The translations under genes were made by a program, and so were the position numbers. Shown here piece after piece: positions 1 through 5,697 of a stretch of DNA of 5,697 nt. Within the stretch, counting starts at the first letter, position 1, and every line of letters begins with the position of its first letter. Below the pieces are notes generated by a model. The model had not been told where the DNA came from and did not search any database. It saw only the letters and a program-made list of their open reading frames with translations. The DNA lies in IMG/VR virus record IMGVR_UViG_2695420871_000005. One strand, given 5' to 3'. This DNA comes from a virus (lineage: Duplodnaviria; Heunggongvirae; Uroviricota; Caudoviricetes).

Positions 1-61
1 GGCAGCGGGCTTGTAATGGGTTAAGTGATAACAGATGTCTGGAAATATAGGGGCAAATCCA
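1..61 (+). mobile_element. IS2 right terminus (IRR end), partial; the body of the IS lies left of the window
   Basis: Positions 1-61 match my recollection of the last 61 bp of IS2 (...GGCAGCGGGCTTGTAATGGGTTAAGTGATAACAGATGTCTGGAAATATAGGGGCAAATCCA). Its reverse complement is a near-perfect inverted copy of 5642-5697. Identification is from memory, not a search. Confidence 0.75.
3..50 (+). CDS. 3' end of IS2 transposase OrfB (InsD), partial; start is outside the window
   Basis: In-frame translation of 3-47 gives [15 protein letters not shown] with TAG stop at 48-50, which matches the IS2 OrfB C-terminus as I recall it. Confidence 0.6.
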
Positions 62-160
62 CTTACGCTTATCTTCTCTTATTTTGAAATACAGATTCGT
101 CAGATAAGTCAGAAGCCCCAGAAGCAGACTTCCCAGCACACCAATCGCAGCCCACTGTGA
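62..160. repeat. 99-bp direct repeat, copy A (duplicate of holin 3' half), directly abutting the IS2 end
   Basis: 62-160 aligns with 723-821 at 97 of 99 positions (mismatches at 71 vs 732 and 97 vs 758). Homology begins exactly at the IS2 boundary and ends at ...cccactgtga. Confidence 0.9.
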
Positions 161-207
161 GACGATGATGCAGATAACCAGAGCGGAGATAATCGCGGTG
201 ACTCTGC

Positions 208-705
208 TCATTGCTGCCCCCACAAACAGACTTCACGCTCAATCTCACGACGGGTCATCAGCCCTTTCCATTGCTTACCGCCAGCATATGTCCAGCGACG
301 TAGCTGGTCACATGCGCCTTTGATATCGCCCTGGTTTATTTTGCGAAGAAGCGTCGATGTTCTGAAATTGCCAGCGCCCACGTTGTAAACGAACGAGTAA
401 AGAGCGCCGCGCGTTGTTTCCGGTATATCGACTTTGATGTACGGGTTAATTTGTCTGGCGACAGTGGCAAGGTCTTTATTCAGGAGGGCTTTGCATTCTG
501 CTTCGGTATACGTTTTACCGAGCATGATGTCTTTTCCGGTGTGTCCGTGACATACAGTCCATACACCAATGATATCTTTGTATGGTATGTAGCTGACACC
601 TTCCAGACCATCGTTACCACCTGGGCCAGTGATTAACACAGATGCTATAGCAACAGCCCCACCACCAATAGCAGCTGCAACAGCCTTGCGTAATGATGGC
701 GACAT
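208..705 (-). CDS. R: SAR endolysin (phage-21 R21-type lysozyme), 165 aa
   Basis: The N-terminus [30 protein letters not shown] is a Gly/Ala-rich weakly hydrophobic signal-arrest-release helix. E35, D44 and T50 ([17 protein letters not shown]) fit a T4-lysozyme-like catalytic triad. The start overlaps the holin stop at 705. Confidence 0.93.
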
Positions 706-920
706 TATTCACCTCTCGCAGCCTTACGCTTGTCTTCTCTTATTTTGAAATACAGATTTGTCAGATAAGTCAGAAGCCCCAGAAGCAGACTTCCCAGCAC
801 ACCAATCGCAGCCCACTGTGATGGACTGACCTGATCCAACCACTGCAAAAACCAGTAGCCGGCACTGCCGGCGGAGGTGCCGTAGGCAATGCCTGTTGAT
901 ATTTTTTCCATCTGATACAT
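705..920 (-). CDS. S: Class II pinholin / antiholin (phage-21 S21-type), 71 aa with dual start at Met1 and Met4
   Basis: [71 protein letters not shown] has two TMDs and a charged C-terminal tail, and the 71/68 dual-start arrangement of S21. It sits immediately upstream of the endolysin. Confidence 0.9.
723..821. repeat. 99-bp direct repeat, copy B, inside the intact holin gene (codons 34-66)
   Basis: Partner of 62-160; lies within the S coding sequence. Confidence 0.9.
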
Positions 921-948
921 ATCCCGCCCCCCGACAGACCTGTGCTAT

Positions 949-986
949 CGGAAAGAAAAAAGGCCATCAGCAAAACTCTGATGGCC
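949..986 (-). terminator. Intrinsic terminator about 30 nt upstream of S
   Basis: On the minus strand: stem GGCCATCAG (986-978), 7-nt loop, CTGATGGCC (970-962), followed by TTTTTTTCTTTCC (961-949). Confidence 0.6.
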
Positions 987-1031
987 TGAATCACCTTTAC
1001 CAATATTGTATGAAAAAACACGCACGACTAA

Positions 1032-1060
1032 TTGACAATAATTTTCATTTCCATTAAAAA
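1032..1060 (+). promoter_or_regulatory. Candidate sigma70 promoter pointing away from the lysis genes
   Basis: TTGACA at 1032-1037, 17-bp spacer, TAAAAA at 1055-1060. The -10 is weak because the final T is missing. Confidence 0.3.
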
Positions 1061-1066
1061 AGATCG

Positions 1067-1163
1067 CGTAGCATTCTTAATTCATGAGGAACTTTACCCG
1101 CCAGCAATCTGAGTAGCGAAAGCTGTTCATCCCCAATGTTTTTGCTGGCGGGTCCTTTTTTCT
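1067..1163 (+). ncRNA. Candidate small RNA of about 100 nt (hypothetical)
   Basis: Bounded by the candidate promoter at 1032-1060 and a plus-strand terminator at 1096-1163. The only ORF inside is 10 codons with no RBS. Not supported by homology. Confidence 0.25.
1096..1163 (+). terminator. Plus-strand terminator-like hairpin
   Basis: Perfect 12-bp stem ACCCGCCAGCAA (1096-1107) with TTGCTGGCGGGT (1142-1153), a 34-nt loop, then CCTTTTTTCT. A second GC hairpin with a T-rich tail follows at about 1172-1205. The T-runs are on the plus strand only. Confidence 0.4.
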
Positions 1164-1600
1164 ACGGTCCTCCTCCCCGGAGGGGGGCATTTCATTATTT
1201 TTCTAATCGTTACTGGTGAGAAGGCGGAAGAAAAAGCCAGTTCTTCGCCCCTAAATAACAGCATGATTCCAGTCCATGCAAAATCTGATTTCCAGCTCAC
1301 ACATACCGAGCACTGTACAAAAAACCGCCAGCCAAGGCAGTTAAGAGTGTGTTCCCGGGGTTTGCTTAGAATATTTTGTAAGTTGTCCGAAGAGATATTT
1401 ACAACACCAGAATGATGAATCATCAGTCCCCTGCCAGAGGTTCACTACGTAACCTGACCGACAATGCACCATTCTGGTGCTGAAAAAAGAGCACTGGAAC
1501 TGCAACAAAACAACATCACAGAACAGGAGATGGTAAGGAGTCAGACATTCCCACACAATATTGTGTCAGTGCAAATAACAACCTTCGTCTCAAATCTCGC

Positions 1601-1675
<75 letters not shown>

Positions 1676-1678
1676 ATA

Positions 1679-1754
<76 letters not shown>

Positions 1755-1759
1755 GCAGG

Positions 1760-1833
1760 CCCACCACCGAGGACTCGAACCTCGCACCGTCAACTTAGAA
1801 GGTTGATGCTCTATCCGGATGAGCTAGTGGTGG
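1760..1833 (-). tRNA. tRNA-Arg (anticodon UCU, reads AGA/AGG); 3' CCA not encoded
   Basis: Acceptor CCACCAC/GUGGUGG, D-stem GCUC/GAGC, anticodon stem UCAAC/GUUGA with loop CUUCUAA, T-arm CGAGG-UUCGAGU-CCUCG, discriminator G followed by CCU. Confidence 0.8.
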
Positions 1834-1834
1834 T

Positions 1835-1911
1835 TGGTGGCCCTTGCTGGACTTGAACCAGCGACCTGGCGATTATGAGTCGCTCGCTCTGACCAACTGA
1901 GCTAAAGGGCC
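1835..1911 (-). tRNA. tRNA-Ile2 (anticodon CAU, presumably lysidine-modified, reads AUA); ileX/ileZ-like
   Basis: GGCCCUUUAGCUCAG...GCGACUCAUAAUCGC...GGUUCAAGUCCAGCAAGGGCCACCA, with acceptor GGCCCUU/AAGGGCC. The body closely resembles E. coli tRNA-Ile2 as I recall it; the CAU anticodon alone cannot exclude tRNA-Met. Confidence 0.8.
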
Positions 1912-1920
1912 GGAGGCAGA

Positions 1921-1949
1921 ATAATAACCATATGTCATCACATCTGCAA
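1921..1949 (-). promoter_or_regulatory. Candidate sigma70 promoter for the tRNA cluster
   Basis: Minus strand: TTGCAG (1949-1944), 17-bp spacer, TATTAT (1926-1921), then the GC-rich discriminator TCTGCCTCC. The first tRNA 5' end at 1911 is about 10 nt downstream. Confidence 0.5.
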
Positions 1950-1998
1950 ACTCATCTGACCACCAGCACGTTTAACGTCCTGTGCCGTTTTTCAGGTA

Positions 1999-2022
1999 TA
2001 AAAAAACCCGCTCATCGGCGGG
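1999..2022 (-). terminator. Intrinsic terminator downstream of the ORF6N-like gene
   Basis: Minus strand: stem CCCGC/GCGGG (2022-2007, extendable by A-T pairs) with a 6-nt loop, followed by TTTTTTTAT (complement of the A-run at 1999-2006). Confidence 0.6.
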
Positions 2023-2100
2023 TTTAAGCTGTGTGGCGTAGTAACCACTCTTAACAGGATATTCAACTTTTTACGATCGTAAAGTTTTCGGAAAAAATTT

Positions 2101-2664
2101 TTAAAACCGCATCAACCGCTCCACCAGTTGCTCTTTACGGGCAACGATCCACCCGTGTTGCTCCAGATAAAATTTAAACCGTTCCAGAGTACATACCATC
2201 GCATCGGCGGGTACCTTTTCCGTGAACTCAACCTGACCGTGTTTATCGAAGTGGCTCAGTAATGCGCATCCATCATTTTCGATAGATGTGTTTTGTGCCG
2301 CTGGTGGCTGTTTCTGGTTGAAATAACAGTCTTCCAGTTTTTCGAACACTTCCCACGCCTGATCGGTTTCGAGCATTTTGGCGTGACGGGCTGCGCCACG
2401 TTCTGTCCAGAGGATGAGGGAGCGAACGTTACGGGCAATTTTCACAGAAACTCTTAAAGAGTTTTCGTTCTTCAACTCTCGTAACGCATCACCTTCTATC
2501 AGGAAAAAATGTTTACCTTCTATAAACCGTTCTTTGTTTCGATTGAAATTGTTTGTCAAACGCTGGCGCTCTGTTCCGTACAAATCAGCCAGCAGCTCTG
2601 TTGTCATGACAGGAAGATGGTTATGCGTAAGTGACGGGAGTTTTTCAATAGACGTGCGATTCAT
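2101..2664 (-). CDS. ORF6N-like phage protein (KilA-N/Bro-N superfamily, antirepressor-like DNA-binding N-domain) with an unassigned C-terminal domain, about 187 aa
   Basis: Start chosen at ATG 2664-2662 (AAGGA RBS 7 nt upstream); the ORF track's longer N-terminus (GTG at 2862) has no RBS. Motifs LADLYGTERQRLTNNFNRNKERFIEGKHFFLIEGDALREL and LWTERGAARHAKMLETDQAWEVFEKL fit my recollection of ORF6N. The C-terminal 80 aa have no recognisable family. Confidence 0.7.
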   Translation of the reverse strand: MNRTSIEKLPSLTHNHLPVMTTELLADLYGTERQRLTNNFNRNKERFIEGKHFFLIEGDALRELKNENSLRVSVKIARNVRSLILWTERGAARHAKMLETDQAWEVFEKLEDCYFNQKQPPAAQNTSIENDGCALLSHFDKHGQVEFTEKVPADAMVCTLERFKFYLEQHGWIVARKEQLVERLMRF

Positions 2665-2870
2665 AGACATGTCCTTTCGAATATTTTGATTTACCCCTTT
2701 TGAGAGGGTGACCGGGCGCTCAAAACCGTCGAAAGTCGGCGGGCGTATTTCCATTGCTGGTATTGTATTAGCCGCACACCCGGTCATAAACCAAGAATTC
2801 TGGACACAAAAAAACCACATGGCTATCGGGTGTGGATACCGCTTTCGAGGTGTTTTGAGCACCGCGGGGA

Positions 2871-2899
2871 AATGTAAACTGCAAACCTGAAACTGTCAA
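2871..2899 (-). promoter_or_regulatory. Candidate sigma70 promoter for the ORF6N moron
   Basis: Minus strand: perfect TTGACA (2899-2894), 17-bp spacer, TACATT (2876-2871). It would give a roughly 200-nt 5' UTR. Confidence 0.4.
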
Positions 2900-3024
2900 C
2901 ACCGTCAGGTTCCAATCATCGGGTGGTGAGACGCACAGGGTTGGAACTACCGGGAAACCGACCGGCGAGCTTTTCAGCTCCCCCATGCGCCCCACCATAA
3001 TTCAGATGTGCGCGTGCATACGAC

Positions 3025-3049
3025 AATAAAAAACACGCTCGCGGCGTGT
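3025..3049 (-). terminator. tR'-like intrinsic terminator downstream of the late promoter
   Basis: Minus strand: stem ACACGC/GCGTGT (3049-3033) with loop CGCGA, followed by TTTTTATT (3032-3025). Confidence 0.6.
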
Positions 3050-3110
3050 GTCTGTCGCGGTCTCTATCCGGGGTTCCAATCCCGACGCCAGATTTTGCTG
3101 GCGCGTGAGG

Positions 3111-3140
3111 AATATAGCCCCGGACAATGTGTCTGGTCAA
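3111..3140 (-). promoter_or_regulatory. PR'-like late promoter (target of Q antitermination)
   Basis: Minus strand: TTGACC (3140-3135), 18-bp spacer, TATATT (3116-3111), starting 4 nt after the Q stop codon. A hairpin CGCCAG/CTGGCG lies in the early transcribed region (about 3083-3104). Confidence 0.6.
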
Positions 3141-3144
3141 GCAC

Positions 3145-3531
3145 CTACATAATTCGTTCTACGTATCTGTCCATCTCCAGCCGGATATCAAGCATCATCA
3201 ACATGCCATCAATAACCCCTTCCGCTTTCTGCAGGCGCTTGCCAATACAGGTATCCGAACACCCATGTTTCCGTGCCAGACTCATAAAAGTCATTCCACC
3301 TACGTAATAATCCACCAGCAAATCGTGCAAATCCTGATTTTTCTTGTTCAACCGGGCCATACAGCCACAAATTATCATTGCATCATCATCAGAACACTGA
3401 GGGCGTGATTTCACTTTCGACGGAATTAACCCTTTAAAACCAGCAGCGATCGACGCCCAGGATACATCTTCATGAGTGTTTGCAGCCCAAGCCCCCCACC
3501 GTTCCATAACCTGCTGAATATCACGCGCCAT
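3145..3531 (-). CDS. quuD: Late-gene antiterminator Q (phage-82 / DLP12 QuuD family), about 128 aa
   Basis: [61 protein letters not shown]... closely matches QuuD as I recall it, including the cysteine cluster. Start chosen at Met8 of the track ORF (GGTGA RBS 5 nt upstream). It is followed directly by the PR'-like promoter. Confidence 0.88.
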
Positions 3532-3892
3532 CGTTATCACCTGTGATTTCATAAATCTTCACGCCCAGTCGCCCACCAGGAACGAGCTGACCGCGCACAA
3601 TATTGATTTCATCAAACTGCTCGTCGTCTATGAGTAGTCCGGCATGCGTCAGCGCATCCAGTGGTGCTTTCAGGATATTGTCCAGGTCACGACGGCGCTT
3701 ATCCGGTGGCTCTGCAATAATCTTTATCGCCAGCCTTCCGGACAGGTTTAATTTCAGCCGCTGCTGGCGAACAATTAGCGTCACATCACGGCGATAACGC
3801 TCACCAACTTTTGATACAAAATATGTGCTGCCACGACGTCGCCAGTAAGTATTCACCGTCGGCGGATAAGGTAAAATAAACTCATGGCGCAT
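3521..3892 (-). CDS. rusA: RusA-family Holliday-junction resolvase, 123 aa
   Basis: [22 protein letters not shown]... with the acidic catalytic motif RRRDLDN and downstream LIDDEQ. AGGAGG RBS 10 nt upstream. The start overlaps the upstream stop; the 3' end overlaps the Q start by 11 nt. Confidence 0.88.
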
Positions 3893-4149
3893 CAGCGCAG
3901 CACCTCCTGCACCATTTTTTCAAACTTTCCAACTTTGGTTTCCAGCTCTGCCACACAATCAACGAGCTCATCCACCGCTTTTTGTGCGCGATGTTTCGCC
4001 TGCATCAGTTCCCTGAGCGCTGGCACCATATCCCGACGAATGGCATCTTTTGTTACACCTGTTTTTTCCAGTTGTTCCGCCTGTCGCAACATTTCCTGCG
4101 CGTGTTTACGCAATTGTTCAGAGGTAAAAGTCATTGTCTGGTTGTTCAA
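3892..4149 (-). CDS. Hypothetical small protein (85 aa from TTG, or 80 aa from ATG at 4134), predicted helical/coiled-coil, family not recognised
   Basis: TTG at 4149 lies 7 nt after a GGAG RBS and overlaps the helicase stop (TTGA). The sequence ...LRQAEQLEKTGVTKDAIRRDMVPALRELMQAKHRAQKAVDELVDCVAELETKVGKFEKMVQEVLR is charged and helical. It sits in the nin-region position between the helicase and rusA. Confidence 0.55.
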   Translation of the reverse strand: MNNQTMTFTSEQLRKHAQEMLRQAEQLEKTGVTKDAIRRDMVPALRELMQAKHRAQKAVDELVDCVAELETKVGKFEKMVQEVLR

Positions 4150-5537
4150 AAGAAACGCTCCATCTTACTGCTGTCGGTACGTGTATTGCTGTATCTGCGC
4201 GGCTGGGGCTGCCGCATTGGGGTGGAAAGAACCTGTGCGCTTTCCTGGTCCACAGGCAGAAAATGTCCGTTATAAAAACGCCGGTAAATCGTCCCCAGAG
4301 AACCGTTACGTTGTTTCGTGATATTAATTTCTGCTATGCCTGTAGCCTGTGTATCCGGGTTGTACACTTCATCCCTGTAAAGCATCAGAATGATGTCTGC
4401 ATCCGCCTCTATTTCTCCGGAATTTTTCAGGTCTGAGTTCATGGGACGTTTATTGGGTCTGGACTCCACACCGCGGGAGAGCTGGCTCAGCGCAATCAAC
4501 GGAAAACCACCGGATTTTGCCAGGCCTTTAAGCCCCTTTGAGATTTCACCCACGGCAAGGTCATGACGCCCCGTGGTTCGGGTTTTTATCAGCCCGAGAT
4601 AATCAACCACCACCAGCGCCGTTTCCGGATGTTTAATCAGATGGTGTTTCGTTGTTGCGCATATCTCATCAATGGTCAGGTTCGCCTGGTCCACCATCCA
4701 GATATTGCGCCCGGTCATCCGCCCCACCCCTTGTGAGAAACGCGCCCAGTCTTCATCTTCAAAGTGAGCCACAGATTTCAGGCGTGATACTGGCATCCCT
4801 CCAGCCGCAGACACCATACGTTCACCAATCTGGATGTTCGCCATCTCCATGGTGAACAGAAGCACACCATGCCCCTGCTCAGTCACCTTGTCGATGATGT
4901 CCAGCGCAAGTTCGGTTTTCCCCATCGAAGGACGGGCGGCAATGAATACCAGGTCTCCGGGCTCCATACCGCCTGTTTTTGCGTCCAGTTCATCAATACC
5001 GGTCATCAACGTCCTGGATTTCTCCAGCCCCTGATTCCGGCATTCAACACGCTCAACCACTTCCGGAAGCACATCATCAATATGTACCGGCTGAATGACG
5101 CCCTTTCCTGTCGACAGTGTGACCATCATGTTCTGCGCATCCTTCAGGGCATCTTCAGCTGCTTCACAGGTATGCGCATCACGTAATTTCTGCAGCGCCT
5201 CATTCAGTGTTTTTTCTGCATCGCGCAGTGCGGCATTGCGCCGCAACGCTGCAACATAGTGCTCCAGTGAAGACTTCACCCAGGTTTTACGCCCGGTATC
5301 AGTAATCACCGGGGCAAGTTCCGGCATCTCATTACACAACAGCACGGGGTCAATCACTCCTGAAACACGGGCCTGTCTGCAGATGCCTGTGTAGATATCC
5401 CGATACGCTCGTACAGAAAAAATGTCCGCCGGTAGTGTGATCAGAATATCCATCACTTCATGATCTGCCCCACGCAGAAAGAATGCGCCAATGACAGCGC
5501 CTTCCAGGTCATCATTACGCCAGACTGGTGTTGTCAT
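4146..5537 (-). CDS. DnaB-family replicative DNA helicase (P22 gene-12-like), 463 aa
   Basis: Start chosen at MTTPVWRNDDLEGAVIGAFFL (ATG 5537-5535, GAGGTG RBS 7 nt upstream) rather than the track's Met at 5678, which lies inside the IS. Walker A is ARPSMGKTELALDI, Walker B is ALVVVDYLGLI, with IALSQLSR and a DnaB-like N-terminal domain. Confidence 0.9.
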   Translation of the reverse strand: MTTPVWRNDDLEGAVIGAFFLRGADHEVMDILITLPADIFSVRAYRDIYTGICRQARVSGVIDPVLLCNEMPELAPVITDTGRKTWVKSSLEHYVAALRRNAALRDAEKTLNEALQKLRDAHTCEAAEDALKDAQNMMVTLSTGKGVIQPVHIDDVLPEVVERVECRNQGLEKSRTLMTGIDELDAKTGGMEPGDLVFIAARPSMGKTELALDIIDKVTEQGHGVLLFTMEMANIQIGERMVSAAGGMPVSRLKSVAHFEDEDWARFSQGVGRMTGRNIWMVDQANLTIDEICATTKHHLIKHPETALVVVDYLGLIKTRTTGRHDLAVGEISKGLKGLAKSGGFPLIALSQLSRGVESRPNKRPMNSDLKNSGEIEADADIILMLYRDEVYNPDTQATGIAEINITKQRNGSLGTIYRRFYNGHFLPVDQESAQVLSTPMRQPQPRRYSNTRTDSSKMERFF

Positions 5538-5641
5538 GCAGCCACACCTCTGATACAAGAACGGTAGCTGGGCCAGTTGAACGACAACCAGTTGCGCCCC
5601 CCGTCTGTGATCCTGTCGGCAATGCGGGGGCTGATGAACGC
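5534..5641 (-). pseudogene. 3' fragment of the gene upstream of the helicase (probably a replication initiator), truncated by the IS2-like insertion
   Basis: An open frame ending ...FISPRIADRITDGGRNWLSFNWPSYRSCIRGVAA with its TGA overlapping the helicase ATG (ATGA), typical of coupled phage replication genes. The frame runs into the IS terminus at 5642, so the native 5' part is missing. Too short for a confident family call. Confidence 0.35.
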
Positions 5642-5697
5642 TGGATTTGCCCCTATATTTCCAGACACCTGTTATCACTTAACCCATTACTGGCTTG
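5642..5697 (-). mobile_element. IS2-family terminus (IRR-type end), diverged variant, inverted relative to the left-edge copy; the body lies right of the window
   Basis: 5642-5690 is the reverse complement of 13-61 with one mismatch (C at 5668 vs T). The inner 7 nt diverge, and the differences are silent or conservative in the transposase frame (A-S-N-G vs A-C-N-G), suggesting a distinct functional IS2 isoform rather than the same copy. Confidence 0.7.

Follow-up and report, generated by a model that had tools for sequence, protein, structure and literature searches.

We analysed a window of 5,697 nucleotides (the whole stretch of DNA under study, from the virus record IMGVR_UViG_2695420871_000005), whose sequence matches two prophages of Shigella sonnei that we call A and B. 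The features discussed below lie as follows.

1-61, plus strand: right end of a canonical IS2 (IRR, tip at 61), with its leftward continuation beyond the window.
2-211, minus strand: fusion ORF, Rz(1-17)-S(34-66)-IS2 read-through, from the in-window translation; open at the window end.
62-160, minus strand: S' block, codons 34-66 of a phage-21-type pinholin gene, from prophage B (100% to loci L003-L008).
160-161, no strand: novel, apparently illegitimate join between the BLAST boundaries 1-160 (prophage B) and 160-5697 (prophage A).
161-211, minus strand: Rz' remnant, codons 1-17 of the prophage A i-spanin gene, identical to the first 51 nt of an intact Rz (L010).
208-705, minus strand: intact R, phage-21-type endolysin, 165 aa (PF00959, 154.5 bits).
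705-920, minus strand: intact S, class II holin (pinholin), 71 aa, with dual starts M1/M4 (PF04971, 121 bits).
1127-1423, minus strand: 98-aa ORF between the tRNA genes and S, called in public annotations.
1601-1911, minus strand: late-region group of four closely spaced tRNA genes, Met-CAT, Arg-TCT, Thr-TGT and Gly-TCC, between the ORF6N gene and S.
2702-2785, minus strand: sRNA-Xcc1 (Rfam, 77 bits).
2919-3002, minus strand: C4 antisense RNA (Rfam, 71 bits).
3028-3104, minus strand: isrK (Rfam, 77.5 bits).
3065-3117, minus strand: c4-a1b1 target (Rfam).
5642-5697, minus strand: right end of a variant IS2 whose tip is at 5642, in inverted orientation to the IS2 of 1-61; it forms a 49-nt inverted repeat with 13-61.

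All lysis genes of the window are on the minus strand. Both S and R are intact, S is free of IS elements, and the exact R protein is listed in 3,085 blocks of the collection. The fusion ORF starts with an ATG at 211 that overlaps the R stop codon as ATGA, runs through Rz codons 1-17 and then through 33 codons corresponding to S residues 34-66, and enters the right end of IS2 at 61/62. Its first 17 residues are the N-terminus of the intact Rz that the same prophage has in other genomes, and its residues 18-50 match residues 34-66 of the intact S (705-920, 71 aa) exactly, a segment that holds TMD2 and most of the basic tail. Translation and alignments thus bore out the anatomy that the original prediction had described, a 17-codon Rz' followed by S 34-66 and IS2. 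The prediction had also claimed a block duplication, and this was reproduced: 62-160 and 723-821 of the window's own S are identical at 97 of 99 positions (mismatches at 71/732 and 98/759), and the similarity falls off sharply at both edges. Positions 1-61 match the canonical IS2 right end at 61 of 61 positions, both in annotated E. coli copies and in the S. sonnei S::IS2 locus. The terminal inverted repeat of IS2 (IS3 family) therefore lies at the junction, which supports the further claim that the block ends at the IS2 terminus with the frame running on into the element. When a canonical IS2 is appended to the window, the ORF stops 84 nt inside it, giving a predicted protein of 78 aa. A 99-nt, 98% direct repeat that ends exactly at an IS terminus is no chance resemblance.

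Prophage A, which we reached through an exact look-up of the R protein, accounts for nearly all of the window. Positions 160-5697 match prophage A of complete S. sonnei genomes with 99.96% identity over 5,538 nt; besides the Rz truncation, the only differences are two mismatches, at 1312 and 1757. Prophage A is a known IS-riddled cryptic lambdoid remnant of S. sonnei, and near-identity, gene order and the junction between the variant IS2 and the DnaB-like gene all assign the window to it. Its order is variant IS2, DnaB-like helicase, an 85-aa ORF, RusA, Q, ORF6N protein, four tRNAs, S, R and Rz, followed after Rz (154 aa) by HNH, terminase, a truncated portal, IS4 and IS2; the gene content of the window corresponds to the part from the variant IS2 to Rz codon 17. 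In reference S. sonnei genomes the Rz of this prophage is intact, with 154 aa and a match to PF03245. The remnant is without the early region and most morphogenesis genes; an IS2 truncates it on the upstream side of the DnaB-like gene, and its portal gene is cut by IS4 and IS2 in reference genomes. In four of the five complete prophage A loci, a canonical IS2 is present 5.6 kb downstream from codon 17 of Rz, with an identical 61-nt tip and with its IRR turned towards the lysis genes, as it is in the window.

The variant IS2 at 5642-5697 truncates the gene upstream of the DnaB-like helicase, and both this end and its junction are identical in all S. sonnei prophage A loci examined. It reads …CCATTACTGGCTTG where the other copy has …CCATTACAAGCCCGC, a difference fixed in the S. 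sonnei genomes examined. The 5.58-kb remnant in the window is bracketed by inverted IS2 right ends (13-61 and 5642-5690; 49 nt, 98% complementary). Between Q and the ORF6N gene lies a cluster of Rfam matches (2702-3117, minus strand), which we take to resemble the P1/P7 immI-type C4/ant module and the Salmonella Gifsy isrK-anrP region; the cluster may regulate how the ORF6N (antirepressor-like) gene downstream of it is translated. The private SNP at 1757 sits in the 3-nt spacer between tRNA-Thr and tRNA-Arg, and the one at 1312 changes R38 to C in the 98-aa ORF. That ORF, which several terminator-like hairpins overlap and to which the locus gene tables assign no Pfam family, is perhaps not a true gene.

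A protein search with the fusion led to a second S. sonnei prophage, B. The match, P0001, is annotated as 'lysis protein S [Shigella sonnei]', is 91 aa long, occurs in 234 blocks of the collection, and consists of S residues 4-66 followed by the same IS2-encoded tail as that of the fusion. In the prophage B loci (L003-L008, from complete or near-complete S. sonnei genomes) a simple IS2 insertion interrupts S at codon 66 with duplication of GTAAG, and the full element and this duplication are both present at the donor locus. The far flank of the IS2 is GTAAGGCTGCGAGAGGTGAATAATG followed by R(B), and in the reference genomes examined prophage B has its own R (165 aa) and an Rz ORF (156 aa) after S::IS2. 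Window positions 1-160 match this locus at 100%, including both SNPs that separate the block from the window's S. The ancestor inferred in the original prediction, an IS2 in the S gene at codon 66, is accordingly a common S. sonnei allele. Over the 61-nt tip that the window contains, the IS2 of prophage B and the downstream IS2 of prophage A are the same, with no distinguishing base. Prophages A and B are found together in the same genomes, separated by about 2.7 Mb and inverted relative to each other. Their S-R-Rz regions form a 98.6-99.6% repeat, and the 139 nt beside the join (161-299) are identical in the two.

IS2 has entered such cassettes elsewhere. In other strains the S gene is hit after residues 55, 65 and 66, and Rz at codons 19, 27, 76 and 85. 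Two Rz::IS2 loci have the element at 4061/4062: in L001 it follows codon 19 with a duplication of ACAGG, 6 nt from the Rz break of the window, and in L002 it follows codon 27 with a duplication of ACGGT. Phage-21-type cassettes have thus been hit by IS2 many times in the orientation that gives a read-through tail (P0002, P0004, P0005, P0007, P0009), and a divergent S allele (P0002) has the element at codon 66 too. The recurring sites suggest either a target preference or spread by recombination. With IS2 insertions and fusions turning up repeatedly in the S and Rz genes of E. coli and Shigella, the scar in the window is typical of IS-driven prophage decay.

What sets the window apart is the join at 160/161, the only new feature, since all of its components (the cassette, the S::IS2 allele and the IS2 insertions) are already known. 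In gene sense, intact Rz(A) reads …ATCATCGTC TGC CTG TCA TGG GCT GTT across the break (the intact Rz(A) sequence being GTCTGCCTGTCATGG), S(B) reads …GTC AGT CCA TCA CAG TGG GCT GCG, and the window reads …ATCATCGTC TCA CAG TGG GCT GCG. A single nucleotide (T) can be assigned to either parent, and the nearest 7-mer common to both, TGGGCTG, lies a few bases downstream and out of register. As no IS end lies at the join, it was probably not made directly by a transposase, and as the overlap is just 1 nt, we infer that recombination was illegitimate and at the level of microhomology. Of the two kinds of recombination that the original prediction had offered, illegitimate or homologous, the illegitimate one is therefore upheld.

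We searched for the same Rz'-S'-IS2 junction in other genomes, as the original prediction had proposed, and it was found in no collection. By megablast the join was absent from 5,426 complete E. coli genomes; 11 E. coli matches with at least 80% coverage were two-piece matches, with S and R/Rz in their normal places. The join-spanning 23-mer CCCACTGTGAGACGATGATGCAG had no exact match in GTDB representatives, metagenome contigs or viral contigs. Among about 15 billion proteins, neither a homology search with the 78-aa sequence nor exact look-ups of 70 aa and 78 aa returned the fusion, in full or in part. Every match among deposited phages ended at position 160, and none had the join. The closest relatives were recovered through the exact 98-aa ORF protein as altered by the SNP at 1312, which occurs in 34 blocks of the collection. 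None of them has the join: Rz is intact (L018) or the contigs break inside R (L021-L023), at positions that distinguish A from B. Since relatives with the rare SNP at 1312 keep an intact Rz (L018), the event would be recent and private. A literature search on Shigella sonnei, IS2, prophage and holin returned no paper.

We regard the window as probably a strain-specific rearrangement scar in the cryptic lambdoid prophage of S. sonnei, with the fusion ORF as an incidental product. Of the routes considered, we favour a template switch or break repair, with a 3' end at codon 17 of Rz priming on S(B) at codon 34 and 99 nt then being copied up to and into IS2(B). Synthesis would have returned, through IS2 homology, to the canonical IS2 of the same orientation 5.6 kb downstream of Rz in prophage A. 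The net outcome would be a 5.6-kb deletion, removing Rz 18-154, Rz1, HNH, terminase, the portal fragment and IS4, together with a 99-nt templated patch. On such a route the in-frame 78-aa ORF would be a by-product, in effect a fusion pseudogene; because an in-frame outcome has odds of one in three, selection is not needed to account for it. The weak point of a template switch is that 1 nt of microhomology would prime poorly. An alternative is an inversion between A and B by reciprocal illegitimate exchange, whose geometry fits because the prophages are inverted relative to each other. The precise reciprocal product, S(1-33) joined to Rz(18-154), was not found with either start of S, an argument that is weak in that it assumes a precise join and a source assembly within the collection. 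Deletion with a patch and inversion predict the same sequence over the window because the window ends inside IS2. Two other histories were rejected, the first of them as a sole explanation. A single tandem duplication of about 2 kb within prophage B alone conflicts with the intact, IS-free S(A) and the A-type SNPs in R upstream of the join, and a homologous inversion between two IS2 copies would preserve each IRR flank and could not place S(B) 34-66 beside Rz(A).

Transposition could in principle have delivered the block as well, if IS2(B) had moved with S codon 34 as a surrogate right end and carried a unit of IS2 plus 99 nt into Rz(A), with Rz 18-154 now beyond the element. IS2 does enter Rz nearby in other strains (L001 at codon 19, L002 at codon 27). 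IS3-family transposases use a terminal CA-3'. The outer end of the block (…CCCACTGTGA) is unlike the IS2 terminus TGGATTTGCCCC and is without this CA-3', so by appearance it is not an end that a transposase made, and we give this history almost no credence. An artefact of assembly or library preparation, in which a chimeric read or mis-threaded contig hides a prophage A with intact Rz, deserves more weight and is still unlikely. In its favour, and as a weak point of a rearrangement scar, the join is a singleton known from one assembly across all collections searched. The window also resembles a complete short-read contig with IS2 repeats at its two ends, A and B have near-identical copies of the S-R-Rz region, and related draft assemblies break or swap between the two in the lysis region. 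Against it, a mis-join in a de Bruijn graph depends on a k-mer common to both sides, which here have 1 nt in common; the contig is unbroken through the join, implying read coverage; and the two sides agree in sense and derive from one genome, as a real local event would predict. One intermediate possibility is a real join whose attachment to A instead of B was mis-threaded: because 161-299 are identical in A and B and hybrid A/B drafts exist (L017, L019), it is the assembler that ties the join to A and not to B. Of these draft S. sonnei contigs, L017 is A on the left and B on the right and L019 the opposite, both via the 98-aa-ORF allele. The pair resembles what an inversion by homologous exchange between the inverted A and B would leave behind, or what an assembler that systematically mis-threads the region would produce.

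As a protein, the fusion retains part of a holin and little of a spanin. The Rz1 o-spanin gene is embedded in the +1 frame of Rz, and S21 makes its holin and antiholin forms from the dual start M1/M4. The 78-aa fusion has no match to PF03245 (Phage_lysis), and the periplasmic coiled coil that follows the N-terminal anchor in i-spanins is absent from it. An Rz1 partner is likewise missing, as the window holds 51 nt of Rz past the R stop and, in L015, an intact prophage A locus, Rz1 (PF06085) begins 217 nt past that stop. Of the class II holin, residues 18-50 keep the pore-lining helix TMD2 and basic cytoplasmic tail; the PF04971 score in the Pfam scan is 61 bits (cut-off 26), covering profile positions 26-62 of 64. 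The SAR-type TMD1 and dual start M1/M4 are gone, S residues 1-33 having been replaced by Rz 1-17. The original prediction had also expected a lysis defect from the loss of spanins, and this found no support: prophage A is already a dead remnant with no phenotype to affect, which makes such a defect moot. The Rz ORF (156 aa) of prophage B in the reference genomes also bears on the predicted spanin loss.

A function for the fusion would require expression from the late transcript by coupling to R, with an N-in Rz anchor ahead of TMD2; the product would modulate or mimic the S pinholin, either like an antiholin, as the original prediction had speculated, or as a TMD2-only pore. The overlap of the Rz start with the R stop (ATGA) is native, all of TMD2 is kept and scores above the Pfam holin threshold, and residues 4-42 form a single unbroken hydrophobic stretch in the hydropathy profile. 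In published truncation experiments S21 30-68, which is TMD2 alone, is reported to give transient pores still, with a C-terminal tail that can largely be dispensed with (bioRxiv 10.1101/2021.04.20.440580). These points make a membrane-active product conceivable. Set against them, the ORF occurs in one assembly, with no conservation from which selection could be inferred, and the remnant is without the early region, leaving Q and late operon expression doubtful. The Rz part moreover adds just 14 hydrophobic residues, and the 28-aa tail is an arbitrary read-through into IS2. A functional fusion is therefore very improbable in our estimate, and we place slightly less faith again in the specific proposal that it is expressed with S and R and that TMD2 behind a non-releasable hydrophobic helix makes it a dominant-negative antiholin or a leaky pinholin. 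If that proposal were true, the toxicity of the intact S/R pair would be altered in this Shigella lineage.

The join is ordinary IS-associated prophage decay with one private junction. If real, the rearrangement is a clean example of decay in IS-laden Shigella prophages, in which an IS2-hit holin gene would have donated the 99-nt patch that, through a join at the level of microhomology, took the place of the spanin genes in a second prophage. The near-identical lysis cassettes of the two prophages make the region error-prone in short-read assemblies. For phage lysis biology the join has no bearing unless the fusion ORF is expressed and active.

The closest known system is the phage 21 lysis cassette (S21 pinholin, R21 SAR endolysin, Rz/Rz1). 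The S, R and Rz 1-17 of the window are of the same type and in the same order, the overlap of R stop and Rz start is the same, and DNA identity is 92.9% over 160-916. In contrast to phage 21, Rz ends after codon 17 in the window, and the periplasmic domain with the embedded Rz1 is missing. The S. sonnei S::IS2 allele (P0001, prophage B) shares with the window an identical S-IS2 junction, the preceding 99 nt and the 28-aa IS2 tail. There, however, S codons 1-33 lie upstream and R and Rz downstream, whereas the window has Rz(A) 1-17 in place of codons 1-33. In E. coli Rz::IS2 loci (L001, L002, P0007, P0009) IS2 sits in the spanin gene in the same orientation and gives the same read-through tail. 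Those insertions are direct and have 5-bp duplications, whereas in the window 99 nt of holin sequence lie between Rz' and IS2 and the break in Rz is not an IS junction. Engineered pinholins that lack TMD1 (S21 68 delta-TMD1 and S21 30-68) offer a further parallel, as the S part of the fusion corresponds to residues 31-63 of S21 68 and, with its TMD2 and tail, approximates the minimal unit reported for transient pores. Unlike those constructs, the fusion is natural and combines this unit with a foreign hydrophobic N-terminus and an arbitrary, basic 28-aa tail.
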